This document shows, one piece after another, positions 17,649-40,267 of a stretch of 40,267 nt of DNA. The position numbers were made by a program, and so were the translations under genes. The DNA is from Nemertoderma westbladi (Eukaryota > Animalia > Xenacoelomorpha), in assembly GCA_032718475.1 (NCBI GenBank), contig JAUCBJ010001749.1:1-40267 (forward strand), written 5' to 3'. The notes below the pieces were generated by a model. The model did no database searches. It was not told the DNA's origin and saw only the letters and a list, made by a program, of their open reading frames with translations. Within the stretch, counting starts at the first letter, position 1. Every line of letters begins with the position of its first letter.

Positions 17649-17848
17649 TTCTCAAAGATAATAATTCATCATAGCGGGCAATGTTTATAATTTATTAATT
17701 AATTAATAATTTACATACCAACAAGGTCCTGGAGATAATCCCTCCAATAGGTTAGCATTCGACGCTCGCGTCGCCGCCGAATTGAACCTTGCTCTGACCA
17801 CTGCACTTCAAATAGCTGTTCAACAATAGTGGCGTCAAGTTCACACTT

Positions 17849-18133
17849 TTACAAGTTTGGTTCTTTGTTAAGTTAATAATGTATTACAATAGTAATTCTC
17901 CTTTCTAGATTCAATGAAGGATTAAAGACTCTGGGAGTTCTAAATAATATACAAGATAATAGAGATATCTTTAAGGAAGTTTTCGTTTATAAAAAACGAA
18001 AACTTCCTTAAAGATATCTCTATTATCTTGTATATTATTTAGAACTCCCAGAGTCTTTAATCCTTCATTGAATCTAGAAAGGAGAATTACTATTGTAATA
18101 CATTATTAACTTAACAAAGAACCAAACTTGTAA
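17849..18133. repeat. Perfect 140-bp-arm palindrome with 5-nt loop, containing a HECT/G2E3-like exon fragment
   Basis: Arms 17849-17988 and 17994-18133. After TTTCTAG the sequence reads FNEGLKTLGVLNNIQDNRDIFKEVF. Confidence 0.9.
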
Positions 18134-20105
18134 TTGCCTTTCGTCGTCATAGTAACGATCATTAATTGTTGATAATTATAGTTAATAAAATAATTAATTA
18201 ATTAAATAAATATTGTAAATTCAACAACTTTAATAAAACATGGATCAATAGAAAGGAGTGAAGGAAATTAAGAAAGTGAAAGAGATTGATTAAGTTACAT
18301 AAATTTTAGATAATTGTAATTATTCAGCAATTAAGTTTCACAACTAATCGTTATAATTAATGGCAGTTTTTAAATATAGGAAAATTACTGCTCTAGTGGC
18401 CGGCGAATGCGATCGAAGCAAATAAACTTCATAAAGACTGGAGACAAGTGTATCTCTATGGGTGACAAGTGTATCTCTATTTAGTAGTACTGTAATACTG
18501 TATAACTTCTGGGCTTATCTTGTCGGTTACCATCCCAGGAATGAACTCGCCCAAGCTTCGTTCTCTCATGAATGTTTCAAGTTCGTTATTTATATTCACA
18601 CTTAGTCAGTATACCTGCAGCCGTTAAGAGAAACGCGAAATATATAATAGGCCTACTGTATACTGAACAGTAACGTAAGAACCACTGATATACAATTTTA
18701 ATTTCCCTCCAATTTAGTTCTCCTATGTTTTTACTACAACCAATCAAACAACTCCAAATTTGTAATATTAACGTAAATGGTCGTGTTAGCTAACACGAGG
18801 GCTCGTGTTACTAACACGATGGCTCGTGTTAGCTAACACGATGGCTCGTGTTAGCTAACACGATGGCTCGTGTTATAACACGAGGGCATGTGTTAGTAAC
18901 ACGAGGGCTCGTGTTATGTAGTAACACGAGCCCTCGTATTAGCTAACACGAGCCCTCGTGTTAGTAACACGAGCCCTCGTGTTAGCTAACACGACCATTT
19001 ACGTTTGTTAATATTGGGGAAATTAAAATTGTAAATAAAGTAAAAAAAATTTTTTTGAACTCTCGCATTATCGTTATTTTTCAACACTCGATATTTTTAC
19101 TCGCGTTATTTTTACTCTCGATATTTTTCATGTCTCGATATTTTTCAATATAACCCACCTACAGGGAGTGCCAAAGTGACAATTAGTATATAAGCCAATA
19201 GCGGGCAGGGGAGCACATGGGGAAAGATAGGAAAGCATCCATTGGGTAGCAAAAGTACAGTAGAGGTGAAACCAATATCTATGTGTATCAATCATATAGT
19301 TATCCCGATTACTGATTTACCGGTCAGTTCATTAATCACAGAGTTGCAGACCGGTTATAGTTTTAACCATCACTTCATCACTCTATACACTGCTGTTGTA
19401 ATTCTGTATTGCAATTTCAATCATATACTGTTATACATTCTGTGCTATTATCATTGGAACATTAACATTGAGAAACACAAACTCTGTTATTTTCCCGACG
19501 GCCTTCGGCCAAAGATATAAGTTCAGCAGCCCAGCAGAAAGTGACGCGTATAACCAAACCCGGTCGGGATCCTTGAACTCGATCCCGTCACATAGTATTG
19601 GTGAGATTTCAGGACAGAGGGATTTCAGGATTTGTTGTGATTGTGATTTCTGGATTTGTCCGTTTATTGTTTTGTTATACTGTACTGTTATATGATGTGA
19701 TTTGTTTGGTTTTGGTGTTATTTGTTCTGATTTGGCTGTGTGGTGTGATTTGTTCTGATTTGGGTTTTTAGACCGATCCTTTACTGTACTGCTGTACTGT
19801 TTTTAGTCCTACCGCCTTTCTGCCTTTTACAATTTGGTTTTACCATTTACCTTGGTTTTAGCAGTTTCAGAGTTTAGCATTTACTGTAGTTATGGGGCGC
19901 CATTCTGGTCAATTGCACATGCCATTCTCGCTGCGAGATGTCATTCTCGCAGCGAGATGTCATTCTCGCAGCGAGATGTCATTCTCGCAGCGAGATGTCA
20001 TTCTGTCTGCGAGATGCCTTTCTCACTGCGAGATGTCCCATTTTCTGTTTATTTTTATTTTACTGAATCCAGTATCTCAATCTGTACTTTACTTGTAACA
20101 CTGAA

Positions 20106-20905
20106 ATGGGTTGGTCAAAAATTGTTGTCGACGAAGATCGCTTACATTTTCGACGACGGTTTAAAATTGATGATATATACTGCTCTGCTATGATATAGCT
20201 ACTGTAGATTGATGAATATTAGTCCGAAGACATTGCGTCGACGCCGAGAAGAGCTAATTGAAGAGGCCAAGGTTATCATCCAAGGTTAATATGGCCAAGG
20301 GAACTAGACAGTAATAATGACATCCACATATTTGCTTTGCATTATATTTATATGCCACGTATACAAAGATCAGATCACTGCAACTACTACTTGAACAATG
20401 AACACGCACTATCTTCAATTAACAATAGATCTCCAAGTCAAATTTAGACCGAATCTATGATTTTAAGGGGAGTTCACCATTTTACAGATTATTTATTAAA
20501 AGATTATAGTTTTTGATCTAAATATTGTACAGCTAACAGTGGCACGTTATTTTAATAACGTCAATAGAACAGGTTTCAGTTTTAATTTTGAGTGTAAATA
20601 GTTATTAACTATATAACTAAATAGTTATTGACTATATAACTAAATAGTTATTGACTATATAACTAAATAGTTTTATTTTTTGGCTAAATTGGTAACCCCC
20701 CCCCCCAGCAATAATTTCCACCTGGATAATGACAATATACATAAATTATATGATAACTTTGAAGTGCGTTACGATGAAGAGGAGGGGGATATTATTGTGG
20801 CTGAGTTTGAAAAGGACTTCAACCCATACAACTACTGTACATAATATTGATCCACTTCAGGACGATGGAAATTTCGTTATTCATCTATACAAACAGTATG
20901 TTTAA
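20106..20905 (+). pseudogene. Integrase N- and C-terminal remnants
   Basis: Removing CTGTA at 20202-20206 restores the HTH-like IARLMNISPKTLRRRREEL. Removing CTGTA at 20835-20839 restores QLHNIDPLQDDGNFVIHLY, which resembles the C-terminal motif of this integrase family. Confidence 0.6.
20595..20672. repeat. 23-bp tandem repeat x3.4
   Basis: TAAATAGTTATT(A/G)ACTATATAAC. Confidence 0.9.
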
Positions 20906-21070
20906 TCACTAATGTAGAGAGAGATGTGGCAACACTGAAAAGAATGGTGAAACTAATTCTGTATAATATATATTCTTTAAACTTCTTATTGTTATACAGT
21001 ATATTGATTATAAGTGTATTTTTTGTAGTATCGTTCTACAACATTCAGTATTACAGTAATTATACTATTA

Positions 21071-21854
21071 CTAGTGACGGGCCTAGCGGACCGATAAGGA
21101 ACCGACTTTTTATTTCAAATAAAAAAGATAACGAGAAATAGTATAGAACTAATTATGTAAAAATACAATCATATTTCATACAATAATTACTAAGAAATTC
21201 GATCTATTATTAGTTGCTTAATTCTAGAACAAAATCAACCTGCAAATCGTGAAGACCTCGTTTTGGTATTTCGAAACCATGTTGCTGGTCCGATGCGCGA
21301 TATCGAGTTTAGTTAATAAATTGTTAACTACATCAATTTATATGTACACAGTAATAAGAAATCCTTATGAATGTAATCAAATACAAATCATTCTAGAAAA
21401 ATTTCCTCAAAAAGTATCAAGTCTTGGCATTGGTGCTTCAAAACTAGGCTAGTCAGATTCAGGATATTGCGTTTAATATAAGAATCGAAAACCCCATCTA
21501 ATTCCTTAAAGGCGTTAATAAAATATTGCAACTTTTTTGAAACATGGACAGTCAGAAAGAGGACATCGAATTAAGTTGAAAGATTAAAACCCCATCGAAT
21601 TTGGACTAAGTGTTCCTGAGTTATAGCTGATCTAAAAAAAATTACCCCCACCCAAGTTTTTTTCAATTTTTTGCGTTTTTTTTTATAGGGAATCAATTGG
21701 CAATACTGGCTATGAAATTTTTTTTTGAAATTTTTGGTCATAAAAAAACATGGGAAAAGTATCTTCTCAACTCTACACACTACTGTATAACTAGTCAAAA
21801 ACCATTCAGGTAGCCAGCATTTCCCAGGAACCTACTGCTATATACTGTAATAGA
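21071..21854 (-). mobile_element. Non-autonomous Helitron-like insertion
   Basis: On the minus strand it starts TC and ends with a GC hairpin (CGGTCC-GCTA-GGCCCG) followed by CTAG and T. No TSD. Confidence 0.5.
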
Positions 21855-21971
21855 CATCTCGCTGCGAGAATGACATCTCGCTGCGAAAATGACATGTGCA
21901 TTTGACCAGAACGGCGCCCCATATTTAGTACTGTAGCTGTGTAGTGCAAGTGCAGTAGTGCCTTGCACCTA

Positions 21972-24088
21972 GGTCACCTAAAGAGGCTGAAAAAAAGAGG
22001 TTGTTTATTTTTACAATATTATGATAATTTGATATGGGGTTAGTTTTATAAATTTTCATTTGCTGCAATTTGGTCAATGGACGTAATTGAAGTCTCCTCG
22101 TTAAGCAAGACACCAAATTTTATGGTAGCTAGTGTTTTAGGTAGGTTTAGCTAGTCATTTCAACACTGGTTCCGACATCCTACTTCCTTCTATAAATATT
22201 TTGTAGTGGCTAGTTCTTATTACTATTTGTATAGAAAATGTTCCAGAACATGTTGGCTATTCATTTTTTTTTTAAATTATGTTCTAGAACAAATATTTTT
22301 TGTTCTAGAACATTTTTTAGAAAAAAATCTGGATTCTATTTAAAATTCACGGAATCGTTCTAAAACGTGTTTAAATTTGGGTGCTGGTCACCTCGCCGCA
22401 CTGCCACTTCGCCGCAAGTCATCTCGCCGCAGATAATGTGCGGCGAGGTGTCTTGCGGCGAGGTGTCTCACTATAAATGCAATTTCGCCGCAAATTATCG
22501 GACACCTCGCCGCAAGTCAATATAAATCATTTATTTCTATATTTACACGAAAGCCTACTTATGGCATTGGACATTATTATAAGAAGAAATAAAATAATAC
22601 GGTAAGGTTTGTTGTTCTATTATAATTACTGTATTATATTACATGTTATCATAGATACAGTAAGACTATTTGAGTAACGTATTAGATTATAGTAAAATAC
22701 GGTCATAAAGATTCATAGAGGACTATGAATGACATATAATGAGTATTCTGACATAGAGGTCAGATCAGAATACGGTCATTGAAGTTGTTTCCATGTCATT
22801 GATTACGGTACATTGCAGCGTTACGAGTAATTCTCCAGAACACTGTTAAGTTGGCATAATGTACTGTAACAATAACTATTTACGTACATGTACAATGTAC
22901 TAAGTACGGAAACGGAAGTAAGGCAACATAATGTAATAAGGTTAATACAGTAATACTGTATGTTTATGTTAAATCTTAATTACAAATGTAATGTTCTTAG
23001 TGGATTGATATACTTATATTTGTTGTCAGTCACTTTTTTTGTTAAGAGCAAAATTATGGTCGAATTACATTTCAAATTAATTTCCATGACATTAATAATA
23101 ATCAATAATATTGCATTAAATATTATAATTTTCTTTAATTTCTTACATTACCTATTTTATTTATTTGTGTGGAATTAATATCGCACTACCAAATCGCCAG
23201 GACAAATTTAAGAAATTCCAACAAATAATTATTTATTACATGGGAAAAAAGTAGAACTTTTTTCACTATTCTCGAGGCATTTTTAATACGTTACTCAAAT
23301 ACCGGTACTCTTACTGTATCTATAATAATACAGTAATTATAATAGAACAACAAACCTTACCGTCTGACCGTATTATTTTATTTATTTTATAATACATAAT
23401 GTCCAATGCCATACTGCCATAACTAGGCTTCCCCTGTGTAAATATAGAAATAAATGATTAATATTGCCTTGCGGCGAGGTGTCCGATAATTTGCGGCGAA
23501 ATGGCATTCACAGTGAGACACCTCGCCGCAAAGACACCTCGCCGCACATTATCTGCGGCGAGGTGACCTGCGGCGAAGTGGCAGTGCGGCGAGGTGACCA
23601 GCACCCTTTAAATTTAATACAAAAAAATTTCAAAATTTATTCACAATATTTTTTTTTCACAATTTCTTTTATTGATTTTAAACTCGTTTTAGAACGATTC
23701 CATGCGTTTTAAATAGAATCCATATTTTTTCTAAAAAATGGTCTTGAACAAAAAACATTTGTTCTAGAACATATTTTTTTTTTTTAATGAATAGCTAACA
23801 GTAACATGTTCTGGAACATTTTCTATACAAATTGTAATAAGAACTAGCCACTACAAAATATTTATAGAAGGAAGTATGATGTCGGAACCAGTGCTGGAAT
23901 TACTAGCTAAACCTACCTAAAACATTAGCTACCATAAAATTTAGTATCTTGCTTAAAGAGGAGACTTCAATTACGTCCATTAACCAAATTGCAGCATATG
24001 AAAATTTATAGAACTCTCCTCAGAAATATCATTATTCTGATATTGTAAAAATAAACTGGCCTCTTTTTTTCAGCCTCTTTAGGTGACC
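21972..24088. mobile_element. Foldback-type non-autonomous element (about 880 bp without its insert), TA or CTAG TSD
   Basis: About 400-bp inverted arms starting GGTCACCTAAAGAGGCTG (21972-22376 versus about 23677-24088). CTAG at both junctions. Confidence 0.9.
22379..23606. mobile_element. Mutator-like non-autonomous element nested in the foldback
   Basis: About 300-bp TIRs starting GGGTGCTGGTCACCTCGCCGC. The 9-bp TSD TTTAAATTT is at 22370-22378 and 23607-23615. Confidence 0.92.
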
Positions 24089-24106: not shown

Positions 24107-26345
24107 GAGGTAGAATAAAATGTCTGTCCTTATCTGATCTGATCTGATGGCATCTGATCCTATAACCAATCAGAAGACAGAGATATAATATTGTATATAA
24201 GGTACTGTCTGACTGTCAGTTAGGTAAATAGCCAATAGGGGATCAGGTTGCTAAGTTACATCAGTAGGCCTACATAGCACCATGGATTGTGACATACTGA
24301 CATACTGCAGTACTGTTACAACGGCATACTGCAGTACTGCTGTATTGGTATGCATCAGTATTCTAGATGTATGGATGTATTCTAGTTTTATTCTAGATCC
24401 AGATGTAAACAACTTCCCTATTTTATATGAAATACTATTTTCTACTTATATTTTTATTCTAGTTTCAGATGTAAACAACTTTCGTAGCTTTAGTTGTTGT
24501 TGATACATTAAATATTTATTAAAAACAACACAACCTTGCTGCAATATTTTACTAATCTTTCTTGTTAATAGTTATCATCATTATTAATTGTTATACTTAA
24601 TTGTATTAATTATAATTATTATTATTAAATAATGATGATGACGTATCAATATATTAAATATAAAATATTTGTTTGTTTGGTACTCTAAAGGGAAGGGTTA
24701 TCACAGTCCTGGCTAACATATGTGGGGCGAGCCACGAAGTCCAGGTAAGCCTTAGCATAGCAGTACAATTAGTGAGCCGTCCGTCGTCGTTGTCGTCGGA
24801 AATGTTTGAACGCTAATAACTGTGTCGATCATGAATGAAATGGAACCAAACTTGGTACACATGTAGTCTATCAAAAGTTTAGAGATTCTACATACAGACA
24901 GACTTCTATAGTTCCTCTGTCTGCCGCTAGGGGGCGAATTGACAGAAACGTAGAAGTACTGTAATTGAAAGTATTTAAAGTGTGCTCATCCTTGTGGTTT
25001 GTTACAGAGATTGGCCCTGTACGGACCCGTTAAATTAATTTTTTTTATGTTTAACACAATGGTATAAAAAATAAAATTTCAATTATTCTGATCAATTTAT
25101 ATTGCACAAAATATGTTTCAAATATATGTACGTGTTTTATCCTGAGTCACTGTTTTGGTTTTATTGGAGTGAGAAAACTCGAAACATACTGTACTTGTTC
25201 ATTTAAGTATAAATTAGAAACGGGCCTAGCGGTGATGTGAACGTCAAACACGAATGATCACCTCTAAAAGTATCACCATCGCGTAAATAACGTACTAGGT
25301 AGGTAGAACAAAATAAAAAAAAAGTAAAAAAATACAAATAGCGAAGGCATTTCTTTGTCAATTCAATTATTATTGATTCAATTACAAATTCAAAAATTAC
25401 AAATTCAATTACAATTCGACATAAGTAATAGAATGAGCACGAATGTACGTAGACTGTTCAGTATTCAGCACTATAACTATTACATTATAAATAATCAATA
25501 AATTTCGATAATAAATCGAAATAACACACATTGCATCCATGATCTATTACACAAACGGGCCTTCGCGCAGCACGTGACATAAACGTATGTTAAGTGCCGA
25601 CTTGTTCAATTCTAGTTTCGCACAACCTGGCAAGCTGCCTTGCCTCAATATTATTTCCCCCGGGGGGGGGGGGGGGGGGGATTTATGTTCCAATTCCGTT
25701 ACTCATATTACAAACGCACAAAAAAACATAAATTTTCAACATTCATAACATGATGCCAACTTCGTTCCGACTCTGGCGAGTTCGTCCAACCTCGTTCCGA
25801 CCATAGCGGGTTGGTCCAACATCGTTCCGACTCTGGAGGGTTCGTTTAAATTTGCTCCAAACCTGGCAGGTATCTCTCTGGGTGGTTCAGCAGTGGGGTC
25901 TAGCTCCAGGCCCTGAATTAACGGCTGTCTTGTAAACTTCTCCAGTGGAGACTCAACAGGGCCGCGTCCGCGACTTCGTGTAAATGGGCGGTAGAAACCT
26001 TGCACAACCAGGTCGTGGCCCACCCAGGTTGTTAAGACTAAGGTGATAGAGGTTCCTAGCGAGTATGGACGAGTCAAAACTAGCTTAAATCATCTTGCAT
26101 CCTTACATCTTAAGTACGCTGATTCCAAATACTGTATGTGTGTTTTATCCTTAGTCACTGTATTGGTTTTATTAGCGTTATAAAACTCGAAACATACTGT
26201 ACACGTTTCGTACCTGTTCATATAAGTATAAACTAATAGGCCTACCATGTATAAACCACTAACTGCAATAAGGTGAAACAAGTGTCAGATACCGTCAGAT
26301 CAGATCAGATCAGATCAGATAAGGACAGACGTTTTAGCCGTCCTA
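24107..26345. mobile_element. Mutator-like element with 9-bp TSD and composite interior
   Basis: Inverted TAAAA(T/C)GTCTGTCCTTATCTGATCTG ends. GTACTGCCG is duplicated at 24098-24106 and 26346-26354. Confidence 0.85.
24721..24940 (+). mobile_element. HINE/Helentron-associated (DINE-1-like) fragment
   Basis: CCTTAGCATA..GTCGTCGTTG..CGCTAATAACT..AAACTTGGTA..ATGTAGTCT, collinear with the copy at 33517-33797. Confidence 0.55.
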
Positions 26346-26481
26346 GTACTGCCGTAGTATACAGTATAGTAGGCCATGCTTACACTTACACCTTCTGACC
26401 GTACTGCTGTACTGGTACCGCCTACCGGTACCAGGGTACTGCCTTACAGCATTAAGCACTAAGCAGTTCAGTTAAGCCTTC

Positions 26482-29350
26482 CAGTCAGGGAAAACATCCC
26501 CGTGGGGATATGTCAAATTTTGGCTTAATTTCTCAACCTATCCTAGTCAGGATAGATGACATATCCCCACCAGGATAGATGGCACATTTTCCATTTTTCC
26601 GGTTTGCGCAAAAATTGGTTGGATGGCTATGTATTTCTTCGGTATTACAATGATCAATAGGTTACAAAAATTGTAAAATTTCACGCCCTTGTCATTGGTA
26701 AGATTTATAAGAAGATTATAGGGGTTTTAAATTCACATTGATTTCTATCCTGCTGGGGATATTATCGATATATCCCCAGCAGGATATGTTTTATTTATAT
26801 CCTGGTGGGGATATTTTGGATATATCCACAGTAGGATATGTTTTAGAATAATATGTGTGTTTCCTATTCAGCATATCCTATTCAGGATATGCTAGGCTGA
26901 TGCTGGTGTGCGTGTTTCTTTCTACTGTATAGGATTTCGTGGGTGAAGACATTTGATTTATCTGTCAGTAATTGTTAGGCAAATTATTACGAAACTGCAG
27001 TCTGAATAATGGTAGGGCTACCGGTACTTATTAGACCCTATTACAGTACCTATTACGATAGTCTGTCAGTCTGTTCTGTACCATAATAATTCTGATTATT
27101 AATTATTTTGATAATGGCTTCCGGTGCGGTAAATATAAAGAACCACGGAAGGGCCGTGTTGAGACTTGCTTCTGTTCCAATTTATCTGATCTATGCTCAA
27201 CTGAAACTAGTGAAAATTTTTACACGAGGAATAAAATTTTCGAACTTCTTCTTTGGGTCCAAAATCCCAAAAGCTATGTTGGACCATTACATACCAGGGA
27301 GTCTATGGTAATGAATTCTGTAGATTCGTCCAAGTTTGGTGTCATGGTTAGAGCTGCCACTTCGCCTGCAGCATTTTACCCCACTCAACAGACAATCATA
27401 CAGGCATCTTCTGTAGACTTCCCTGAAGTGTCGCCGTCTAAAGATATATGTATTGCGATAGAAAACTTTCAATTTGTAGGCAAAACCTACCGCCTTTTCA
27501 ATAAGAAGGGTGTACCAATAAGCAAGGTTTGCTCAGTGATCAGCATACCTTAATTGTCAGGATTTATTAATTCAAAGGCACCCAATTCAGTTCATTGACC
27601 TAACTGGATTGGATGTAGGCGAGTGAGTGGAGGCCTTTATTGAAATTGAATTGATTGTAACATTGTTTATGTTACATTTAACTGCAACTATATTTATACA
27701 CATATACATATACACATATATATATATACATATTTGTACAGTAACTATATTTAAAATATATAATATTATATTCAGTCTGTACTGGTGTCAAAATATATAA
27801 TGCAACTATCCCCAAAGGCATAATAATTAAAGAACCCAAAAATAAAGTAAACTGAAACTAAAGGTGTAGGCCTACTAACGATTGAACTAAGTTGTCCCTT
27901 CTTCTTCCAACCAGCCAACGGAAGTTGTGAAGGGCACTCCCCTTCGCCTTCAGTAATGACTGGGGGTGATAAACCCGTTTCTTTCTAGCCAGCTAGCACT
28001 AGCAGTGGCTGATGATTCATCTGGCTGTAGTTCGTGTTGTCCACTTACTCCATCTATCTCTGACTTCATCTGTCCATCCACTTCATCTACTCCCAGCACC
28101 TCCTGTCCATCCACTCCATCTACCTCCGATATCGCCTCTCCACTCACTCCATCTATCTCCGACATCCCCTGTCCACCCACTCCATCTACCTCCAACAGTC
28201 CAACACCTCCTGTCCATCCACTCCATCTACCTCCGATATCGCCTCCCCACTAACTCCCTCTATCTCCGACATCCCCTGTCCAGTGTCCACCCATTTCATC
28301 TACCTCCAACATATCCTCTCCATCCACTCCATCTACCTCCGATATCGCCACTCCACCCACTCCATCTATCTCCGACATCCCCTGTCCACCCACTCCATCT
28401 ACCTCCAACACCTCCTGTCTGCCTGTCCACCCACTCCATCTACCTCCGATATCGACTCTCCCTCCACCAACTCCATCTCTCTCCGACATCCCCTGTCCAC
28501 CCACTCCATCTACTTCCTGTCCACCCACTCCATCTACATCCGATATCGCCTCTCCACCCACTCCAACATCCCCTGTCCATCTATATCCATCTATCCAATT
28601 AAGTTCAATCAGTCAATTTGTCTGAAGTTTAGTATGTTTACTGTATATACTGTATGCTGTACAGCTCTACTGTAGACAGATATACCAGTATCAGTGTACT
28701 GTACAGACTGAGTTGTTGAGGGACTACTACCAGACTACAGGACTACCCTTCTGTCAGCCAGGTACCGAAGTAGACTACCTATTATACCGGTTGTTATATT
28801 ACTTTCGCACAGAAGGCATTACAGCATTAAGGCTACCAACTAACATCTATGTGTCTGTACGGTATGTGTAAGCTTAGAGGCAATCCTTCTGGGGATATGC
28901 CACAAAACTTACATAAAACAAGCTACTGGCTGACTGGCAGACTGGTATATTATTCTAAAACATATCCCAAGACTGGAGATGTCCAAAATATCCCCACCAG
29001 GATATAAATAAACATGAATGAACTTTATCGTGAAACATACAGACATATCCCGCTGGGGATATGTCGATAATATCCCCAGCAGGATAGAAATCAATGTGAA
29101 TTTAAAACCCCTATATTCTTCTTATAAATCTTGCCAATGACAAGGGCGTGAAATTTTACAATTTTTGTAGCCTATTGATCATTGTAATACCGAAGAAATA
29201 CATAGCAATCCAACCAATTTTTGCGCAAACCGGAAAAATGGAAAATGTGTCTTCTATCCTGGTGGGGATATGTCATCTATCCTCACTAGGATAGGTTGAG
29301 AAATTAAGCCTAAATTTGACATATCCCCACGGGGATGTTTTCCCTGACTG
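26482..29350. mobile_element. TIR element with CAGTCAGGG ends and 5-bp TSD (unclassified)
   Basis: About 350-bp TIRs containing palindromic ATATCCCCNNNGGGATAT-like repeats. CCTTC at 26477-26481 and 29351-29355. Confidence 0.92.
28040..28600. repeat. C-rich degenerate tandem repeat (about 33-bp units)
   Basis: Recurrent CCACTCCATCTA(C/T)CTCC units. The minus strand reads EVDGVGGQ-type acidic repeats. Confidence 0.85.
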
Positions 29351-29677
29351 CCTTCAGCCTTACCAAGCAAGCAAGAAGTAAAGTAATCGTATAGGCCTAA
29401 CAGTAACAGTCAGACAGTGGACAGTAGGCCTATAATAGTCTGACAGTGTAACATGCTGAACAGCTGAATGCATAAAAAAATAGGAAATAAGATCTGAAGA
29501 TTATAGGTTATCACTGTTTTACATTTCAGAATTTAGCAGTTTAGTAAACTTCTGAACTTCAAACTTATGAAAATAAACTGATAAATGTCCCCTCATGATG
29601 CTGCCCCTCTGCCCCTGCCATGCGCAATGCCAGTATGCCCTACACCCTAACTCAGTAACTGCTGAACTGCCTACAGG

Positions 29678-31139
29678 CAGTTAGGTACAATGGCCAAATC
29701 TGGCAATGATTGTGATTGCCATATTTGGCAACCAAGCAAAATCTGGCAACATTTCTGATTGCCTGATTTGGCAACTATATAAAGCCGTTGTTGCCATATT
29801 TGGCAACTTAACTAACTCATTGAATATGGATTATATGGTTCTGCATCATTAAGTCCTTCTATGGTCAGATGGTAGTATGGTCAGATGGTCATTCCTTAGA
29901 TCCTGAAATGTTAATGTTAGGCCTAGAAAAAAGGCAGAGGCTGGGTAGGGCCACGTTACAGGTTATACTTAACTTATACCAGTCAGCCAGTAGTCTGGTA
30001 GTGGCATATTCTAAGTTCTAACCAATACAGCAATATATCCTAATAAATGAGGTGAGAATGAGAGTCAATAACACAAACACAGACTGACTGGTGATAGTTT
30101 TTTTGCTTTTTTGACATTTTTGCTAGCCATCTCTCGCGCTGCTTGGGGAGGTGATTGATTGTTGTTTATACCAATAATAGTTTAGTAGTTAAAGATTGTA
30201 ACTGTGTAATGCTGATACAATTGCCCAGCAATCTAAATCATCCTTCACTCTATATCAGTTCAGTATATCTATCTTTCCATTCCTACATCAGTACATACAG
30301 ACATATAATAAAAATAATTTCATCCCGTTTTTCATTAGCTGATTACAGATTAGGGCCTACTAGTAACAATTTGTTGAATCCCTTAACCTGCCTGTTAACA
30401 CGCGTTTTGGTTTTCTCAGTCTTTCTAAATTTTGACACTATTTTTCTTACGTCACGCCGTTTCTCAAACTTTAGGCTAATGCCCCCTTGCCTTCTTGCTG
30501 CCTTTTGGTGATGTCAACGTTCTGTCTGACGTTGTCAAATATTATTACGTTTATTTCCATTTTGCAGCCTTTGAAGCATGTGATTCTTTAGATTTGTTTA
30601 TGCCTATACCATAGGGCCTATACCAGTCTACCAGTACGGTATCTGTTACAGACTCATCCATCTGTCCATTAACATATTAACAATAGGCCTAACAACATAT
30701 CAAATAGGCCTACATTCTGACATTTCATCAACTAATAATGTTTATAAATCATCACAACTCGACAAGGGTAAGCAAGCAGTTAGCAATTTTGAAGTAATTT
30801 ATACAATGTCAGGGTTACTGACAGGGCTGCACAATAATAATTGTTGCCAAAAATGGCAACCATTATTTTTCTTTAATTCTAATGGTTGCCAAAAATGGCA
30901 ATAATTATTTTAGGCACATTTCGGCCTATTGCTAAGAGAAATTCAGACGATGATTTTTTTTCTTATACGGTCAATTATATTTAAATTTCGCGCTCTTTTC
31001 ACTTAACTATTTACCAAAATGCGATTTTGCTTCTGGGCTTGCGAAAATTAGAAAAACCAAAAGTTGCCAGATTTGGCAATAAACATTGCCATATGTGGCA
31101 ACTTTTGAGGTTGCCAGATTTGGCCATTGTACCTAACTG
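29678..31139. mobile_element. TIR element with CAGTTAGGT ends and 5-bp TSD (unclassified)
   Basis: Perfect 29-bp TIR CAGTTAGGTACAATGGCCAAATCTGGCAA with subterminal TTGCC..TGGCAA palindromes. ACAGG at 29673-29677 and 31140-31144. Confidence 0.92.
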
Positions 31140-32264
31140 ACAGGCCTACAGACTGACAGAACAGCTAACATCCAACACAGTCTGACAGTACTGCAGTAAC
31201 AGATGACAGACAGACAGAGTGAGGAGTAACGTAACGGCTAACACTGTTCAGAGTTCAGCTGTTACCTAGTTACTGTAGGGTAGGTGTCAGGTGTAGGCGT
31301 GTAGCAGGTAGGCCTGGCCTACAGCCCAGCTGTGCGTATCTCTGTATCTGTCATTTGTGCACAGCCTACCTGCCTCAGTCAGTCAGTGCCTACGTCTAGG
31401 CCTGGCTAGTGGCTACAGCGTACTGCTGTACGGATACATGACCGTACGTAATCAGGACCGAATATAACATAGTTATTACGTATCGAACGTAACCGCAATT
31501 ATGTTACATTGGATCCTATAACTATGAACTATGTTACATTCGATCTACAAATTACTAAGCTCGAATGTAACATCTGAACATTGCCATTTACAGATTTAAA
31601 GGCTGAAAGGAGCAGGTTACAGAGGCATGTAGCGTGTAGGGCAGTAGGGAACATACCCTTAAATAAGCTCCAAAACTGGGTTCTTATTTAAGGAAAATGG
31701 CTCTTATTTAGCCTTTTTTGGATATTTTTTCGACATAATATGCAAGAACTTGTTTCAGGTAAAAATACGGCATAATTTTATTTCACAATATAAAAGTTGG
31801 GTCTTTCTTGAACATAATGCAAAAAACCAGAAAACATTTCACCGTCCGGTTTTTTTTCTACAAGCGTTTTAAAATTGCATCAAAAATACGACCAGTTCCT
31901 AAATAAGAGGGATTTTTTAAATTTACCTTATTTAAGACATCGAAATTGTACACATAAATACTAAAAGTCCTTAAATAAGAACTTTTTGACATGGGTTTCA
32001 TATTTAGGTATACAATTTCATTCCAAAATCTGCATACTCCTTAAATAAATTAAATATTTCTCATTTCTCAAATATTAAATTAAATAAATTAAATTAAATA
32101 TCCTTATATAATGTCTCTTATAACCTCGTCTCCCAGCCCCGTCCTCCTTCTGCCCTTAACTGCTTATGACAGTTATGTATGACCTAACTGCCTAACCTTT
32201 ACAGGACATTGCAAGATGCCGAGATAAGGGAGCTTCTGAGCTTAATTTGATAGGTGCAAAAATG

Positions 32265-33495
32265 CACAACGAGCAACAATGACCAACAACGAGCAACAAA
32301 TGAACAATGAGTAACAAAACAACGAGCAACAATGAGCAACAACAAGTAACATTGAGCAACAATGAGCAATACTAAAGTACAACAATGAGCAATAATGAGG
32401 AACAACGACTGAACGAGCAACAATGAGCAACAACGAGTAACAATGAGCAACTACAGAACTACGAATACTGCGAGTAACATTGAGCAACAATGAGAAACAA
32501 TGAGCAACAACGAGCAAAAATGAGCAATACTGCAATAATAAAGTACAACAACGAGCAACAATGAGCAACAGCGAGAAACAACGAACAACAATGAGCAATA
32601 ATGAGGAACAACGACTGAACGAGCAACAACGAGCAACAATGAGCAACAACGAGTAACATTGAGAGACAACGAGCAACAATGAGCAATAATAAAGTACAAC
32701 AACGAGCAACAATGAGCAACAACGAGAAACAACGAGCAACAATGAGGAACAACGACTGAACGAGCAATAATAAAGTACAACAATGAGCAACAACGAGTAA
32801 CAATGAGTAATAATGAGCAACAATGAGCAATAATAAAAGTACAACAACGAGCAACAACGAGAAACAACGAGCAACAATGAGGAACAACGACTGAACGAGC
32901 AATAATAAAGTACAACAACGAGCAACAACGAGAAACAACGACCAATAATTAGGACATGAGGAACAACGAGTAACAATGAGCAACAATGACAATGAGTAAC
33001 AACGAGTAACATTGAGCAATAATAAAGTATAACAACGAGTAACATTGAGCAACAACGAGCAACAATGAGAAACACTGAGCAACAATGAACAATAATAAAG
33101 AACAACAACGAGCAACAATGAGCAACAACGAGAAACAACGAGCAATAATGAGCAACAACGACTGAACGAGCAACAACGAGTTATATAGAGCAACAATGAG
33201 CAATAATAAAGTACAACAACGACTGAACGAGCAGCACCGAGTAATATTGAGCAATAATAAAGTACAACAACGAGAAAAAATGAGCAACAATGAGGAACAA
33301 CGATTGAACGAGCAATAATAAAGTACAACAACGAGCAACAATGAGCAACAACGAGCAATAATAGAGTACAACGAGCAACAACGAGCAATAATAAAGTACA
33401 ACTAACGAGCAACAATGAGCACCAACAAGCAACAATGAGCAACAATGAGAAATAATAAAGCACAACGAGCAGCAATGGGCAACAACGAGCAACAA
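32265..33495. repeat. Strand-asymmetric low-complexity satellite, AACAA(C/T)GAGC-type units
   Basis: Degenerate 10-bp units with recurrent AATAATAAAGTAC and GACTGAACGAGC variants. Confidence 0.95.
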
Positions 33496-33516
33496 ACTGC
33501 GTCGAACCGGATTGAA

Positions 33517-33797
33517 TGTGGGGGAGAGTCACGTTCAAGTGAGCGAAACCTTAGCATATGGGTGCTATTAATATTAACGAATTGTCTGTCGTCGTTGTAA
33601 ATTTTTTATCGCTAATAACTCGGTCATTCTTTGATGAAATTAAACGAAACTTGGTATGTATGTAGTCTGTCAAAAGATTATAAATATTAAAATTAAGGAG
33701 ATGAGTATTGTGTTGAACGACCTCTGACTAACGAAAGACAACATGTTAATGGGGTGGGGCCCCTATCAGCTAGGGCTAGCTAAGGCTTTGCTCACTT
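33517..33797 (+). mobile_element. HINE/Helentron-associated element
   Basis: Inverted AAGTGAGCGAAACCTTAGC (33537-33555) / GCTAAGGCTTTGCTCACTT (33779-33797). GTC microsatellite and AAACTTGGTA core. Confidence 0.6.
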
Positions 33798-33913
33798 CAT
33801 GCTGCGTAAAGGTCCCACGAACGTGTCCCACTGCGGCCTGAGCCAGTTGAGCCAAAAACGTCACCCAGTCATCATCTTTAACCTTCTAACGTCTATCAGC
33901 TGCCCGACGGAAC

Positions 33914-34821
33914 CCAGGTTGGAATTCATGCTGCAAAACTCGGACGCGTACCTGCGCGAATGACCGCAAACCAGATGCGCGTTGCGCGTTTGGGTGAGAC
34001 AGGTGCGCGTTCGGGTGTGAGACAGGTGCGCGTTGCGCCTCAGCGCGCAGCTCTGCCTCTGATGCGCACCACAAATTAATTGAAATCACGAAAATACACA
34101 AAAAAATTTCGCTCGCTGCGCTCGCATTAGTTTCTCATTTACAATTCTTCAAACAGTCAAATCACTTCACCATAATACTGTAATACCGGCAACCGGCAGA
34201 CCGGAGCTGAATTTGTCTATTTATTTTAACTACAGTACTCTATTGTTGTATTGTTATTAGGTCTATGCTATGCCGATGTTACGTTAGTAAACAGGTAAAG
34301 TCAGAAAGTAACAATGTATTATAAGTATGACTTAATTATAAGCCAACTGTATGTTTAAGCCTAATTGTTAGGTAGGCCTATACAAAGTATTATTGGCAGA
34401 CTGGTACCTATTTCAATATTCGTTTTTTTGAAATTACCGGTACATGTTTTGTTTGTGATCTAAAATAATATTTTCTGTTATAAAAGCAGTGAGCCCGATG
34501 GGCCACCATAGTAGTGGATTAAAAAAATATTTTTTAATATTAACAATTTTGATGTTGCAAAAATTACATTTATTATGTAAGCCTAGATTCAACGTAGACA
34601 GACAGACGTAACGATAAGCTTAAAACGCTCAAACTTGTAAAATAGGAATGTAAAATTGTTCTTATGAACTGTGCGATTTTTTGAGATATGCATGACATGA
34701 GCTGCGCGATTTTGTTTGGATTATGACATATGATGAGGTGCGCGACGAGCCAATTTCAGGTGCGCGGTGATTTCAAAACAACAAAGCGTACCTGCGCGCT
34801 CATGCATGAATTCCAACCTGG
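33914..34821. mobile_element. hAT-like non-autonomous element with 8-bp TSD
   Basis: 18-bp TIR CCAGGTTGGAATTCATGC. GACGGAAC at 33906-33913 and 34822-34829. GC-rich TGCGCG subterminal motifs. Confidence 0.85.
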
Positions 34822-36447
34822 GACGGAACCATATTTGTGCCTGCCTATTGACATGACATTGACATTGGTTTTTTTTCACACCTTTCAAGTACAACATTGT
34901 GGACAATCCATCTAAGTGGGGCGTAATGCGGAGCAGAAGAGGAAATGCAGGACACAAGTTAGTTTTTCGAAACTGTGCGGCGATGTCCAGTTACTTGAGT
35001 CATGTCTCATCGAAATACGTGACAATGTATGTGCGCTCAGATGGGCGATGGGCTATTCTTTTGAATATCAAAGGGCTATTCTATGCTACCGTGTGAGGTA
35101 AGAATGCCAGTGCTAGCAACTTCATTATGATACGATATTCTACAGAGGATTTATAGAGTGCAGTGCAACCATTGTCCTTATCCTTAACCCAACAATTAGC
35201 AATATTCAGACTGACATAAATCAAAGAATTATGAAAGAAGTGTAACATATACTGTAAGGAATAAGGAATATTTATTTTATTTAAGGAATGTGCAGATTTT
35301 GGAATACAATTGTATTCCTAAATAAGAAACCCAGGTCAAAAAGTTCTTATTTAAGGACTTTTAGTATTTATGTGTACAATTTCGATATCTTAAATAAGGT
35401 TAATTTAAAAAATTCATCTTATTTAGGAACTGGTCGTATTTTTGATGCAATTGTAAAACGCTTGTAGAAAAAAAACAGGACGGTGAAAGGTTTTCTGGTT
35501 TTTTGCATTATGTTCAAGAAAGACCCAACTTTTATATTGTGAAATAAAATTATGCGGTATTTTTACCTGAAACAAGTTCTTGCATATTATTATGTCGAAA
35601 AAATATCCAAAAAAGGCCCAAAAACCCCTAAATAAGAGCCATTTTCCTTAAATAAGAACCCACTTTTGGAGCTTATTTAAGGGTATGTTCCCTACTGTAG
35701 GGGGAACCAAAACAATAAACGAAAGTTTACACATACAGACATATGTTACAAGATTATGCAGGTTACTTTTATTTAAAGGCTGAAAGGAGCAGGTTACAGA
35801 GGCATGCAGCATGTTGGGGGAACCAAAACAATATACTGATATACGAAAGTTAACACATGTTACAAGATGCAAGATTATGCTGTTATGCAGGTTTCTTAAT
35901 TGGGTCTTGGGTCTTTGTTTTGTACTCACCAACACCAAACTGTTCCTTCCTGTAATTATACAGTTATACGAAGCATTTCATTGGTTAACTCCTGAAATCA
36001 AAACACAACTGAAATAAATGCATGTTACATTCGAGCTTAGTAATTTGTAGATCGAATGTAACATAGTTATAGGATCCAATGTAACATAATTGAGGTTACG
36101 TTCGATTCGTAAAAACTATGTTACATTCGATCCTGATTACGTTCGGTCTGTCACCCCTGCTGTACTGCCCTGCAGCCCTCAGTCCCTTCCTGCTGCCTGC
36201 TGTCCTGTCCTGCCTTCTGTCCTGTACTGTGCGTTTCGGACTTTCAAGTTTCAGACAGTCAGAGTTTGTACGGGATGACGGTGGACGGGTCTGCGGGTAG
36301 AAGGGATAAGTTTATCAGTTTATTCTCGAAGCTAATTCAGTAAATTTGCTTTCATTTTTATTTATATGCTAGGCCAGTCTGCCAATCAGCCAATACAGCA
36401 ATAGGCCTACCCCAGCGCCTATGACAGTAGAGTGGAGAGTGCTGGAG

Positions 36448-36927
36448 GGGTCCTACGAATTACCCCAAAATACCCCAAAACACCCCAAAATACCCCAAAA
36501 TACCCCAAAATAGTCAAATATTACCCCAAAATACCCCAAAAAGGCTAAAAAATTACCCCAAAATACCCCAAAATAAGCTAACCATGTTTTTTAACAGCGA
36601 GGGAAAGGAGCAGGTTACAGTGGCAAGTTTTTTTAACCAAAACAATAAACGAGAGTGAAGAAAAAATTTTTAATTATTTTGGGGTAATTCGTCATTATTT
36701 TGGGGTAATTCGTCATTTTGCCATATTTTGGGGTAAATTAAATTTCGAAAACAAAGGGTGAAAAAAAAGTATTTTGGGGTAATTCTAAACTATTTTGGGG
36801 TATTTTGGGGTAATTCTAAACTATTTTGGGGTATTTTGGGGTAGTTTTATACTATTTTGGGGTCTTTTGGGGTGTTTTGGGGTATTTTGGGGTGTTTTGG
36901 GGTATTTTGGGGTAATTCGTAGGACCG
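36448..36927. mobile_element. MITE with TACCCCAAAA arrays and 8(-9)-bp TSD
   Basis: GGTCCTACGAATTACCCCAAAATACCCC inverted at both ends. TGCTGGAG at 36440-36447 and 36928-36935. Confidence 0.9.
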
Positions 36928-37180
36928 TGCTGGAGTGGCAATTAGGCCTATACCTCTCTGCCTATACCGGTACCTGTAAATGTAATTCGTAATTGACAAT
37001 TCCTTATTCGGTTAGTATTTTCTTGGCATTTATCAGTTTATATCATCATTATATAACTAGAACCAGATCAGCGGAGCTGGAGAGTTACCGGTAATTCAGT
37101 ACGGTAATTGTTATTAAATTAAACGAACTTGCAGTTGTCTACAGAATGTAAAAGGCTGAAAGGTAAATTCGTTGCACAAA

Positions 37181-40100
37181 ATGACTTCAAGGAAAGTAAC
37201 TGGCAATGGCCCCCATCGAAAAATTACCGTGGAGGATTTACCCGAGTATTCCCAGGTCCAACAAATCAAAGATAAGAAGAAAAGTGTCTTCGAAAGATTG
37301 GGAAATAACGACGACGAACAAGAGTCTCTCGCAAAACAGCCACGGCGTCTGGTTTTGACTTCATCCGATTCCCTTTCAACAACAATTGGTGTCGAAGCCG
37401 ACCATTGTAAAACCTGGATGGAAAATGCTTACTGCGAGAAGGGGTCCGCCTGCGAACACAAACACGACATCAAGAAACGAGGCATCTACCAGTCCACCAG
37501 CAGTAGAAAGTTGGCCAACTTTGATATTGAAGATGGTGAGATAGTTCCTAAGAGTACCTTACGATCTATGGTTGCCGCTGTTGGAGGTTCCCATAAAATA
37601 CTTGGCATTACTCCAAAGAAAGACAAAGAAAAGAAACGAAAGAAGAAGGAAAGGTTATTAAAGAAAATCCAGGAGGATTCTATAGATACTACTGATGAGG
37701 ATTTGATTATTAAAGTTAAACATAAATCTAAATTGTATTCCGAGAGCAATGATGACGAGACGTTCGATCCCATTGCATTGGATAATAAAAAGGAACTTGA
37801 ATTAGAAATTAAGAGGCAACAGTTGCAGAAAGAGTTGGACAAAATGAAGGAAAGCGAACGAGATGAACTGCGTAAATCAAAGAAACCTCATAAACCACGA
37901 GCTCGGACCGCTTCAACCAGTTCTAATGATTTGTTTGAAATGAGTCCTGTGATGCAGGGCAAAGGAATGCGCCCCCCTAGCCCAATGGCTGCTGTGGTAA
38001 ATCCGCGAAAAATAATTCGCAATAAATCCGAACATTTATTAAATGAGGCGCACGTTAAAACGCATAGACCCGTAATTGGTCGTCTGTCGCCACCAGCAAG
38101 CAAAAATATTAAATCGTGGAAAAGTTCAAGGGATTCAAAATCTTCATCGGAAAGGCAAAGAAATATATCCGCTGAGTTCGTGAGGGAGGGGTCAGACGAT
38201 CATCTGGATATTGTTCCAGTCCGAACTGATAAGAGACTCTCTGGTGAGAGAAAATCCTTCGTTATGAATGAGGTTAAGTACCCTGGGAAGGACAGACAGA
38301 GTACTCGGGATGGGTACGAGTTGAAAACAGACCGTTCCGAGCGGAAACAAACAACTGATAACGGATACCGGAGGAAATCGGGTGAGCCGGACAGATACCA
38401 CCGTCGTAAGGACAGTGCTGAACACGATGCTTACGGGCATAAAGTATCGGAGCGGGATCGATTCGCATGGAAACAGCCGGAGCTAGACTTCCGACAAAAG
38501 TCGGAGGAAAAGGACAATTATAGAATGAAACTGGAAGGAACTGACAGACGGATTCGTAAACATTCGAATGACGTGTATGATGGTAAGAAAGGGGAGCGGG
38601 ATGGTTACGGGAAGGCAGACTCGGATGGATACAGACGGAAAACCGACGAGTTTGGAGACGGGCCGCACTTCTCAGAGGAGGGCGGGAAACGGACGGATTC
38701 CAGGGACTCCAAAGGGCGGAAGAAGTTTGAGATGAAAGTTACGGAAGATAAGCGGAGAAGGAATTCGGGCGGGGAGCGGAATTACACGGAGGATAAATTC
38801 TCGGAACCACGAGGCAACCGTTACGAAACGAAAATCAGAAAGTACCCCGACACGGAGAGGGAGGGTAAAGGGAGACGGGAGCGGGGGTCTAAGTCGCCGG
38901 GGAAGCATTCCGGGGGGAAACGCCGGTCCCGTCGGTTCTCTTTTACCGCGGAGGATGTTGAGGATATCTGCGGGGACTTCCGGGACGAATTCTCATCGGA
39001 AAAGGGTTCGCGGAGCAAAGCCGGAACCGCCAAGTACTACGAGACCGGCGCGAAGAAGAGACAGACCGGGGACTGGGCTGAGGAGGAGCCGGTTGGGAAG
39101 AAGAGGAAACCGTCGCCGGAAGGTCGAGACTCCAAGAAGTACGGAGGGAGGACTCCACCTCCGGATAAACGGCACGGGAGGAGTCCGGCGCGGCTGAGCG
39201 TCGAGTCCTACAGGAAAGAGAAGCAGTCCGGAAAACTACGGGAGCTTCCGAAGGAGCGGGCCAACGAGGATAAACCTCGAGGGAGGAGGTATGAGGAGGA
39301 ATCCCGAGTGTTCTACCGGGAACCGGAGGAGTTCCCGCCTCCGAGAAGGGAGGAGGCTTATCCTCGGAGTCTTTCCCCGACGCGGTTCTGCCATCCAGAT
39401 CGCCGTGAGTTCATCACCACATCCCGCGAGTTTGCCTTCCCGTCGCCTCGTCGGACTCCTCCGCCTCCGTTGTTCCCGGATGAGTTCGCGGGTCGTTTCC
39501 CGGGCGGTGGACGCTCCCCGCCCCTCTTACTCCCCTTCCCCGAGGACATGGACCCGATTCTACAGCTGCGCGGCGGTGTTGGAAATCCTGAGTTCCTCGA
39601 GGACCGATGGCGAGAGTGTTTCGAGCACTACCAACGGGAGGACAGCGGTTACGCTGACAACTGGTACAGGGACAGGGTCAGTCGGGGGGAATACTTCCCT
39701 CCCGTGGAGAATCATATGGGGAGGAACTTCCAGTCGTTCGGTGGTGGTGGTGGCAGTGGTAGTGGCGGTAGGGAGAGGCGCCACGATGGGGCTCCCTGGA
39801 GGCCAGCCGGTAGGTCACAGAAGAGTAACCAATCAGAAAGCATGAAGACTAAAAATGATGGCCAATCAGGAAGCTTCAGGACTAAAAACGAGGGCAAATC
39901 AGATAGTTTCAGAACTAAAAATGATGGCCAATCAGATAGTTTCAGAACTAAAAATGATGGCCAATCAGATAGTTTCAGGACTAGAAATGATAGCCAATCA
40001 GATAGTTTCAGGACTAAAAATGATGGCCAATCAGATAGTTTCAGGACTAAAAATGATGGCCAATCAGAAACTTTCAGGACTAAAAACGATGGCCAATCAG

Positions 40101-40267
40101 AGAGCAACAGAACTAAAAACGGTGGCCAAACAGGTAACTTCAGAAGTAAAAATGAGTCTCAATCGGGAGGATTTAGGACTAAGAGCGAATCTGATACTGG
40201 GCGAGGGAAAGATTTGGCGAAATCTCGGTCTGATAGGAATCACTCCGACTACTCAGAGAGTTCCCGC
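37181..40267 (+). CDS. ZC3H13: ZC3H13-like CCCH zinc-finger protein (m6A writer complex adaptor), 3' end outside the window
   Basis: MTSRK..RKITVE..SVFERLG, a C-x8-C-x5-C-x3-H finger (37406-37465) and ELELEIKRQQLQKEL, then R/E/D/S-rich low complexity. This motif order matches remembered ZC3H13. The frame is consistent at 37181, 37406 and 39842 and runs off the window (1029 codons). Confidence 0.85.
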   Translation, partial: MTSRKVTGNGPHRKITVEDLPEYSQVQQIKDKKKSVFERLGNNDDEQESLAKQPRRLVLTSSDSLSTTIGVEADHCKTWMENAYCEKGSACEHKHDIKKRGIYQSTSSRKLANFDIEDGEIVPKSTLRSMVAAVGGSHKILGITPKKDKEKKRKKKERLLKKIQEDSIDTTDEDLIIKVKHKSKLYSESNDDETFDPIALDNKKELELEIKRQQLQKELDKMKESERDELRKSKKPHKPRARTASTSSNDLFEMSPVMQGKGMRPPSPMAAVVNPRKIIRNKSEHLLNEAHVKTHRPVIGRLSPPASKNIKSWKSSRDSKSSSERQRNISAEFVREGSDDHLDIVPVRTDKRLSGERKSFVMNEVKYPGKDRQSTRDGYELKTDRSERKQTTDNGYRRKSGEPDRYHRRKDSAEHDAYGHKVSERDRFAWKQPELDFRQKSEEKDNYRMKLEGTDRRIRKHSNDVYDGKKGERDGYGKADSDGYRRKTDEFGDGPHFSEEGGKRTDSRDSKGRKKFEMKVTEDKRRRNSGGERNYTEDKFSEPRGNRYETKIRKYPDTEREGKGRRERGSKSPGKHSGGKRRSRRFSFTAEDVEDICGDFRDEFSSEKGSRSKAGTAKYYETGAKKRQTGDWAEEEPVGKKRKPSPEGRDSKKYGGRTPPPDKRHGRSPARLSVESYRKEKQSGKLRELPKERANEDKPRGRRYEEESRVFYREPEEFPPPRREEAYPRSLSPTRFCHPDRREFITTSREFAFPSPRRTPPPPLFPDEFAGRFPGGGRSPPLLLPFPEDMDPILQLRGGVGNPEFLEDRWRECFEHYQREDSGYADNWYRDRVSRGEYFPPVENHMGRNFQSFGGGGGSGSGGRERRHDGAPWRPAGRSQKSNQSESMKTKNDGQSGSFRTKNEGKSDSFRTKNDGQSDSFRTKNDGQSDSFRTRNDSQSDSFRTKNDGQSDSFRTKNDGQSETFRTKNDGQSESNRTKNGGQTGNFRSKNESQSGGFRTKSESDTGRGKDLAKSRSDRNHSDYSESSR
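39828..40190 (+). repeat. Coding 33-bp repeat, about 11 copies (QSDSFRTKNDG)
   Basis: CAATCAGATAGTTTCAG(A/G)ACTAAAAATGATGGC, in frame with the ZC3H13-like ORF. Confidence 0.93.

Follow-up and report, generated by a model that had tools for sequence, protein, structure and literature searches.

The 40,267-nucleotide (nt) contig JAUCBJ010001749.1 from Nemertoderma westbladi, which we analysed at its full length and call the window, contains three candidate DNA transposons, E1, E2 and E3, each bounded by terminal inverted repeats (TIRs) and by a 5-bp target-site duplication (TSD) (Table 1). The DNA is AT-rich, of eukaryotic type and dense in repeats, with a G+C content of 32-54% in 2-kb bins, and is strewn with short scars in which CAG or CTG stands between two copies of the same 5-mer. 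The three elements share one plan, consisting of CAGT(N)AGG ends, the 5-bp TSD and a palindromic binding-type motif that begins about 15 nt inside the end. All six ends read CAG, in inverted orientation (CAG on the left, CTG on the right).

The outer arms of E1 (26482-26789 and 29043-29350) are 97% complementary over 308 nt and can be traced to approximately 26854 and 28947 (about 370-400 nt), with 88% complementarity over 404 aligned columns. The arms of E3 (31642-32068 and 35257-35697, about 430 nt) are 92% alike. The interior of E1 holds a minisatellite (28038-28593) and that of E3 a 10/30-bp satellite (32266-33495). A blastn comparison of each element against the window returned no cross-match among E1, E2 and E3, of which only the tips are alike. 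Each family carries its own subterminal palindrome: 14 of the 15 window matches to ATCC(Y)N3-6(R)GGAT fall within the E1 arms, all six matches to TTGCCA-N3-6-TGGCAA within E2, where they occupy both subterminal regions, and all eight matches to CTTAWWTAAG within E3.

A window-wide scan paired all exact 9-nt terminal inverted repeats separated by 40 to 16000 bases; of the 9317 pairs, E1, E2 and E3 alone have both a 5-bp TSD and a TIR that extends far (450, 58 and 127 nt). By chance, an exact 5-bp TSD would be expected in 1 of 1024 elements, and it is present in all three. Searching for further CAGT(N)AGG ends yielded 11 left-type and 10 right-type words and no additional paired element. For E3, a second copy of its host repeat provides an unoccupied paralogous site, which reads ...GCATGTTGGG/GGAACC, compared with ...GCGTGTAGGG, E3 and then TAGGG/GGAACC at the filled site. 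A Pfam search of 134 stop-to-stop open reading frames (ORFs) of at least 55 amino acids in the window (18 + 116) identified no transposase for the three elements and no hAT, BED, dimerisation, DDE_3 or HTH_Tnp_Tc3-type domain; the only matches were integrase-like rva_4 remnants in two elements with other ends. Exact-match scans with the E2 and E3 termini found zero loci in metagenome contigs and zero in viral contigs. A sequence-only reading had proposed three elements at the positions given in Table 1, with exact 5-bp TSDs, no internal similarity, family-specific palindromic subterminal repeats and no visible transposase. The arm alignments and the TIR-TSD scan confirm the first of these points, and the blastn comparison, the motif counts and the Pfam search agree with the other three in turn.

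Table 1. Elements, scars and other features of the window, in window coordinates
Feature	Positions	Strand	Description
E1	26482-29350	.	2869 bp; candidate non-autonomous TIR element; ends CAGTCAGGG...CCCTGACTG
E1 TSD	26477-26481 (copy 1); 29351-29355 (copy 2)		CCTTC, exact 5 bp
E1 TIR arms	26482-26854 (left); 28947-29350 (right)		carry ATCC(Y)N3-6(R)GGAT palindromes
E2	29678-31139	.	1462 bp; candidate non-autonomous element; exact 29-nt TIR CAGTTAGGTACAATGG...; tip CAGTTAGGT
E2 TSD	29673-29677 (copy 1); 31140-31144 (copy 2)		ACAGG, exact 5 bp
E3	31642-35697	.	4056 bp; candidate composite non-autonomous TIR element; ends CAGTAGGG...CCCTACTG
E3 TSD	31637-31641 (copy 1); 35698-35702 (copy 2)		TAGGG, exact 5 bp
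Unoccupied paralogous E3 site	35775-35825		second host-repeat copy, ...TGTTGGG/GGAACC
Scar ACAAT-CTG-ACAAT	3699-3711		polymorphic; 8 bases absent in X2 and X3 contigs
Scar ACAGA-CTG-ACAGA	31148-31160		adjoins E2; missing from alternative allele
Densest scar cluster	3508-4644		27 perfect X5-CWG-X5 scars within 1.1 kb, upstream of the homeodomain exon
Element nested in E3	33914-34821		CCAGGTTGGAATTCATGC TIRs; 6- to 8-bp TSD (ACGGAA or GACGGAAC), ambiguous boundary
TIR element	22379-23606		9-bp TSD TTTAAATTT; GG(G)-starting ends; 103-nt TIRs
TIR element	36448-36926		9-bp TSD GTGCTGGAG; GG(G)-starting ends; ACCCCAAAAT-type 10-bp repeats in both arms
rva_4 element 1	15599-18985		bounded by inverted arrays of the 21-bp palindromic unit CTAACACGAGCCCTCGTGTTA
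rva_4 element 2	19890-21932		...ATGGGGCGCC ends; 19-bp subterminal repeats ATGTCATTCTCGCAGCGAG; rva_4 remnant at 20262-20444 (E value 2e-8)
Homeodomain-like exon	4801-5958		first of three long ORFs in the window
Rhodanese ORF	13997-14587		intronless; second long ORF
1036-amino-acid open frame	37160-40267	+	third long ORF; runs off the window end

We counted every exact 5-mer that recurs after three bases in the 40-kb window. The count yields 370 X5-NNN-X5 patterns (X5, any 5-mer), in which the spacer is CAG in 60 instances and CTG in 59; the next most frequent spacers are CCC (20) and GGG (18). Across 200 third-order Markov simulations that keep the 4-mer composition, X5-CWG-X5 scars (W, A or T) average 1.5 and never number more than 7; the window has 119, a roughly 80-fold excess. 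This excess is confined to 5-base flanks: as the flank grows from 2 to 9 bases, the counts run 81, 19, 11, 60, 0, 2, 0 and 0 for CAG and 89, 11, 3, 59, 1, 1, 1 and 0 for CTG, and twelve control trinucleotides score 0-7 at a flank of 5. It is likewise confined to a spacer of three bases, with zero instances of CAGCTG as a spacer of six. An origin of the scars in 8-bp tandem duplication was rejected, as it fits 2 of the 119 if the same trinucleotide must follow the pattern and 3 of the 119 if it must precede it.

The duplicated 5-mers have a palindromic composition, with G avoided at positions 1-2 and C at positions 4-5, which is the kind of preference that transposase targets show. Perfect scars take up 1487 bases (3.7% of the window), at a density of 3.33 per kb outside the three long ORFs; the ORFs themselves contain 1, 0 and 0. 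Scars with a single mismatch between their 5-mers number 63, compared with about 17 expected by chance in our own calculation, and most scars would therefore be young. The scars also form chains, with 19 of 118 neighbouring pairs starting no more than 13 nt apart. At 28925-28945, the chain ACTGG-CTG-ACTGG-CAG-ACTGG apparently uses one 5-mer twice, and a scar therefore re-creates its own target. Separately, CAG or CTG between two TA dinucleotides is enriched, with 68 instances compared with about 16 in simulations (TACAGTA 29, TACTGTA 38; for example, at 4359, 14895 and 24303). This enrichment points to activity of the Tc1/mariner (ITm) type in this genome, which holds both TA-flanked and 5-mer-flanked CWG scars.

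We compared two segments of the window (26300-35900 and 3380-4720) with assembled contigs from four public sequencing runs of one organism (X1-X4), and the results describe the matches listed. Contig k-mer depth in X1 is 4000-15000 for E2 and E3, 113-794 for E1 and 51 for the contig of the unique spacer 29350-29672. Such depth is not a copy number, and we take it only as a sign that the E1, E2 and E3 families are multi-copy. Contig breaks fall no more than 2 nt from the element ends, at 26484 (start of X2 record 8), 29350 (start of X1 record 7, X2 record 12 and X3 record 21), 29676 (end of X2 record 12), 31139 (end of X4 record 26) and 35697 (end of X3 record 23). Because de Bruijn assemblies break where a repeat meets unique flank, these positions support element boundaries at CAG/CTG.

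One contig, X1 record 7 (818 nt), runs through 29350-29672 and then continues directly with 31156-31488, and it therefore represents an allele without E2. The target of E2 lies inside an older scar, GCCTA-CAG-GCCTA (29669-29677 plus 31145-31148). Removing E2 and one TSD copy from the window and collapsing both GCCTA-CAG-GCCTA and ACAGA-CTG-ACAGA reproduces the junction of X1 record 7 exactly. Over about 650 bases, the E2-less haplotype (records 7 and 21) differs from the window by 0-1 substitutions, compared with one element, the two scars at the site and one further 8-letter gap. No empty or scarred allele spanning the E1 or E3 site appears among the matches listed. Joints from 31626/31627 to 35705 were considered as E3-site alleles and rejected; they belong to other copies of the high-copy host repeat, in which the letters between the two sides vary.

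At least one scar is polymorphic between haplotypes as an 8-bp indel. The 8-base gap at 3699 corresponds exactly to ACAAT-CTG-ACAAT (contig depth 15 in X2 and 16 in X3), and X3 record 17 differs from the window across 3681-3870 by 8 gap letters and 1 substitution. Gap letters also outnumber substitutions at 4122-4526 in X2 (35 versus 0 over 405 bases) and at 29350-29672 in X1 (8 versus 0 over 323 bases), and small indels, many of them 8 bp, may dominate polymorphism. The sequence-only reading had further claimed that the scars keep CAG/CTG, and this claim withstands the comparison with simulations, the restriction to 5-base flanks, the 60:59 split, the test of tandem duplication and the search for polymorphism. 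An abundant short unit occurs at 4573-4637, 31597-31641, 35775-35820 and 36590-36650, with a contig depth of up to 2 million and a consensus, drawn from loose contig ends, of CTCTGTAACCTGCTCCTTTCCCTCAATTGGTAAA. This unit, which hosts E3, is probably the most abundant dispersed repeat of the genome. Two of its copies (4573-4637) carry GATTT-CTG-GATTT and CCTTT-CTG-CCTTT as 8-bp additions to the loose-end consensus.

We consider it probable that E1, E2 and E3 are three unrelated non-autonomous TIR DNA transposons, likely belonging to one cut-and-paste group, and that each flank would retain the outer three element bases after their excision. We infer that families of the E1/E2/E3 type made the scars, because the two share CAG...CTG ends and a length of 5, and that length is rare. 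An unseen transposase dimer would bind the family-specific palindromes about 15 nt from each end and recognise the CAGT(N)AGG tip. The 3' ends would be freed exactly at the boundary and the other strand cut 3 nt inside the element, each flank thereby keeping a CAG-3' overhang. The overhangs would anneal as C:G, A.A and G:C and then be ligated, with the central mismatch resolved either way, and CAG and CTG would result equally often, each flanked by both copies of the 5-bp duplication, still intact. If CAG-3' overhangs do anneal in this manner, the equal CAG:CTG split would follow because the A.A mismatch can be resolved in either direction. The second strand could alternatively be processed through a flank hairpin with a 3-nt loop, leaving the same scar. 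Integration would use a 5-bp target stagger, with G disfavoured at positions 1-2 of the site and C at positions 4-5.

The nearest mechanistic precedent is Sleeping Beauty, in which the non-transferred strand is described as being cut a few nt inside the element, leaving the footprints TACAGTA and TACTGTA, that is, the terminal 3 bp between TA copies (PMC6943129). The terminal trinucleotides CAG...CTG and a duplication-C(A/T)G-duplication footprint made from 3' overhangs are features that this system has in common with our elements and scars, according to the same source. Moreover, the inverted repeats of E1 and E3 are long, and binding-type motifs recur inside them, as in Tc1-like elements. 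The differences are that the duplication here is 5 bp and loosely palindromic rather than TA, that the binding-type motifs are palindromic and that the window holds zero ITm transposases. The interpretation put forward in the sequence-only reading fared accordingly: its account of the scars by Tc1/mariner-like internal cutting and the shared plan of the elements are supported, but other families with the same ends and TSD length may have made the scars, and the group may be a described one, as hAT5 fits the structure.

Several points weigh against our preferred account of one cut-and-paste group that leaves CWG scars. The scars could come from other families with CAG ends and 5-bp TSDs, and the enzyme and its cut positions are deduced from the scars in a window that holds no transposase for the elements. 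A flank hairpin with a 3-nt loop would give a scar identical to that of direct double-strand cutting. Some scars, located in tandem or dispersed repeats, do not count as independent events: AACGA-CTG-AACGA is found six times in the E3 satellite, and AAAGG-CTG-AAAGG recurs among the copies of a single repeat. An 8-bp insertion at 3665 falls within a (TGTC)n run and may be due to slippage. Finally, a scarred allele at the exact E1, E2 or E3 site was not seen among the matches listed.

The alternative that survives best is that E1, E2 and E3 are ordinary non-autonomous hAT5 elements excised through flank hairpins and that the scars derive from another group or from an undescribed hAT5 route; we regard it as unlikely. 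Short subterminal repeats combined with a short TIR, such as the 29-nt TIR of E2, suit hAT elements. hAT5 is the hAT group defined by 5-bp TSDs (cited in PMC12730594), and the third base of the 5' terminus is given as always G in hAT (PMC1131882, Figure S7 legend), as it is at all six ends here, so that hAT5 fits on structure. However, hAT footprints are described as small, variable, flank-complementary insertions, together with deletions, arising from donor-end hairpins (PMC3499496), whereas the scars, if they come from this group, carry a constant element-derived CWG between two intact duplications; this comparison is made by definition and by hAT-wide traits. The TIRs of E1 and E3 are roughly 400 bp, and the 134 window ORFs contain zero hAT, BED or dimerisation domains. 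The hAT5 account would also leave as coincidence the presence in one genome of two unrelated groups that share the rare 5-bp stagger and CAG...CTG ends.

It is more doubtful still that the elements are a Tc1/mariner lineage whose target stagger widened from 2 to 5 bp, with the CWG scars as ITm chemistry. The footprint is of the same type as in Sleeping Beauty, with terminal element bases (2-4 in ITm) between intact duplications if the scars derive from the elements, and the enrichment of TA-CWG-TA in the window agrees with ITm activity. On the other hand, no ITm lineage is known to us that makes 5-bp TSDs. ITm transposases are of the DD(34-41)E/D type with paired-like helix-turn-helix domains; DDE_3 or HTH_Tnp_Tc3-type domains are absent from the window ORFs. 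ITm elements generally make TA duplications (PMC10045372), but the TSDs CCTTC, ACAGG and TAGGG place no TA at the junction, and the flanks of the scars are likewise 5 bp.

A Transib/RAG-like identity is very improbable. Transib elements have 5-bp TSDs, as do E1, E2 and E3, and in 2005 Transib was the only eukaryotic superfamily described with them, in the account of PMC1131882. The same account gives CAC as invariant at terminal positions 1-3, where our elements have CAG. The heptamer-spacer-nonamer layout of Transib TIRs, which resembles recombination signal sequences, was not found in the first 38 nt of E1, E2 or E3, and the scars are not of the hairpin type. The weakest alternative, which puts the shared features down to chance and the scars down to an artefact of composition or slippage, draws on the ACAG/CTGT-like words in which the flanking DNA is rich and on the one 8-bp indel in a (TGTC)n run, but it is refuted by the TIR-TSD scan with its three exact 5-bp TSDs, by simulations that never exceeded 7 scars and by the specificity of the signal for 5-base flanks and a CWG spacer, and we give it negligible weight.

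The list of 5-bp-TSD groups in the sequence-only reading had omitted Ginger2/TDD, which has 4- or 5-bp TSDs and TGTNR ends. Ginger elements end in TGTNR, metazoan Ginger2 has 4-bp TSDs at RTATAY, and both TDD-4 and TDD-5 show 5-bp TSDs with TIRs of 50-180 bp, as reported in PMC2836005. TDD-4 and TDD-5 are therefore similar to E1, E2 and E3 in TSD length, but Ginger2/TDD is excluded because our elements end in CAGT, not TGTNR. NuwaI, a PHIS element, duplicates CWG directly as its 3-bp target and has TIRs that begin with GGG (PMC4482050). CWG thus stands at the junctions in both cases; here, however, the TIR itself includes CAG and CTG, which are inverted and enclosed by a 5-bp duplication. A NuwaI-style reading of CWG as the TSD was rejected, as CAG on the left and CTG on the right are inverted and the outer 5-mers are the duplicated sequence. 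PMC10045372 lists TSDs of TA for ITm, none or 1 to 4 bp for PHIS, 3 bp for Zator, 4 bp for piggyBac, 8 bp for Merlin, 4 bp for Ginger1, 4 or 5 bp for Ginger2, 6 bp for IS3EU (with TA..TA ends) and 6 bp for Polinton. The introns derived from miniature inverted-repeat transposable elements in Fritillaria borealis (AG-AC, preceded by TAC; PMC11282704) were set aside, as they follow a different plan.

The enzyme behind the proposed CWG-leaving group may represent a new group; alternatively, it could come from a hAT5-like lineage in which first-strand nicking has shifted or from a Tc1-like one whose target stagger has widened. For the group to which E1, E2 and E3 belong, we would assign about one third of the weight to a new group, one quarter to a hAT5-like one, one tenth to an ITm-derived one and the rest to something we have not considered. 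This question is separate from our confidence in the rival explanations, which also turns on the origin of the scars. The literature searched on 5-bp TSDs with CAG/CTG footprints does not describe the combination, Repbase Reports and Dfam lying outside that search. A more far-reaching proposal, which we advance tentatively and at less than even confidence, is that the group is an undescribed superfamily or a deeply divergent hAT/ITm lineage that combines a 5-bp stagger with three retained element bases. Such a group would be active enough for its 8-bp scars to account for several percent of non-coding DNA, to give rise to ACAG/CTGT microsatellite-like tracts, to re-create targets for new insertions and to compete with point mutation as a source of haplotype differences.

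The length of the TSD and donor-cleavage geometry count as conserved signatures of a transposase superfamily (PMC10045372). A 5-bp stagger with Sleeping Beauty-type scars would be a new combination and, if true, would amount to a new superfamily or else show that lineages within hAT or ITm can alter their cleavage geometry. In this organism, the scars of excision may be a main source of both indel polymorphism and simple-sequence DNA. As a tool, too, an enzyme could attract interest if it leaves a predictable sticky-end footprint and is relaxed in its choice of target.

The window contains further transposable elements (Table 1). The element nested in E3 is outside the CAG/5-bp plan. Contigs from X1, X2 and X3 join 33914 to 34842, and other copies of the E3 family therefore exist without it. 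The gene of rva_4 element 1 (ORFs at 15980-17240 on the + strand) is frameshifted and integrase-like (E values 8e-8 and 2e-9, with weak helix-turn-helix matches), and its best relatives are uncharacterised proteins of approximately 385 amino acids from fish and scallop, at 41-44% identity. The same element contains a perfect 140-nt hairpin at 17849-18133. For rva_4 element 2, a possible 8-bp direct repeat, TACTGTAG, lies outside the element. An integrase-like gene with duplications of about 8 bp would fit neither Ginger (4-5 bp) nor IS3EU (6 bp). The rva_4 ORFs (15980-17240 and 20262-20444) were considered as partners of E1, E2 and E3 and rejected, as their host elements end differently.

Rfam and tRNA scans of the window were empty. 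The best matches of the rhodanese ORF are animal proteins from a nemertean, molluscs, a sponge and amphioxus, at no more than 42% identity, as for an animal that has no closely related annotated species in the database. The 1036-amino-acid frame has no Pfam family and zero homologues among 7988 scored candidates. It shows a C3H-type zinc-finger-like motif near its start and a 33-bp coding repeat at 39829-40155. A 47-bp satellite occupies 8262-9530, with 26.9 copies that are 96% alike.

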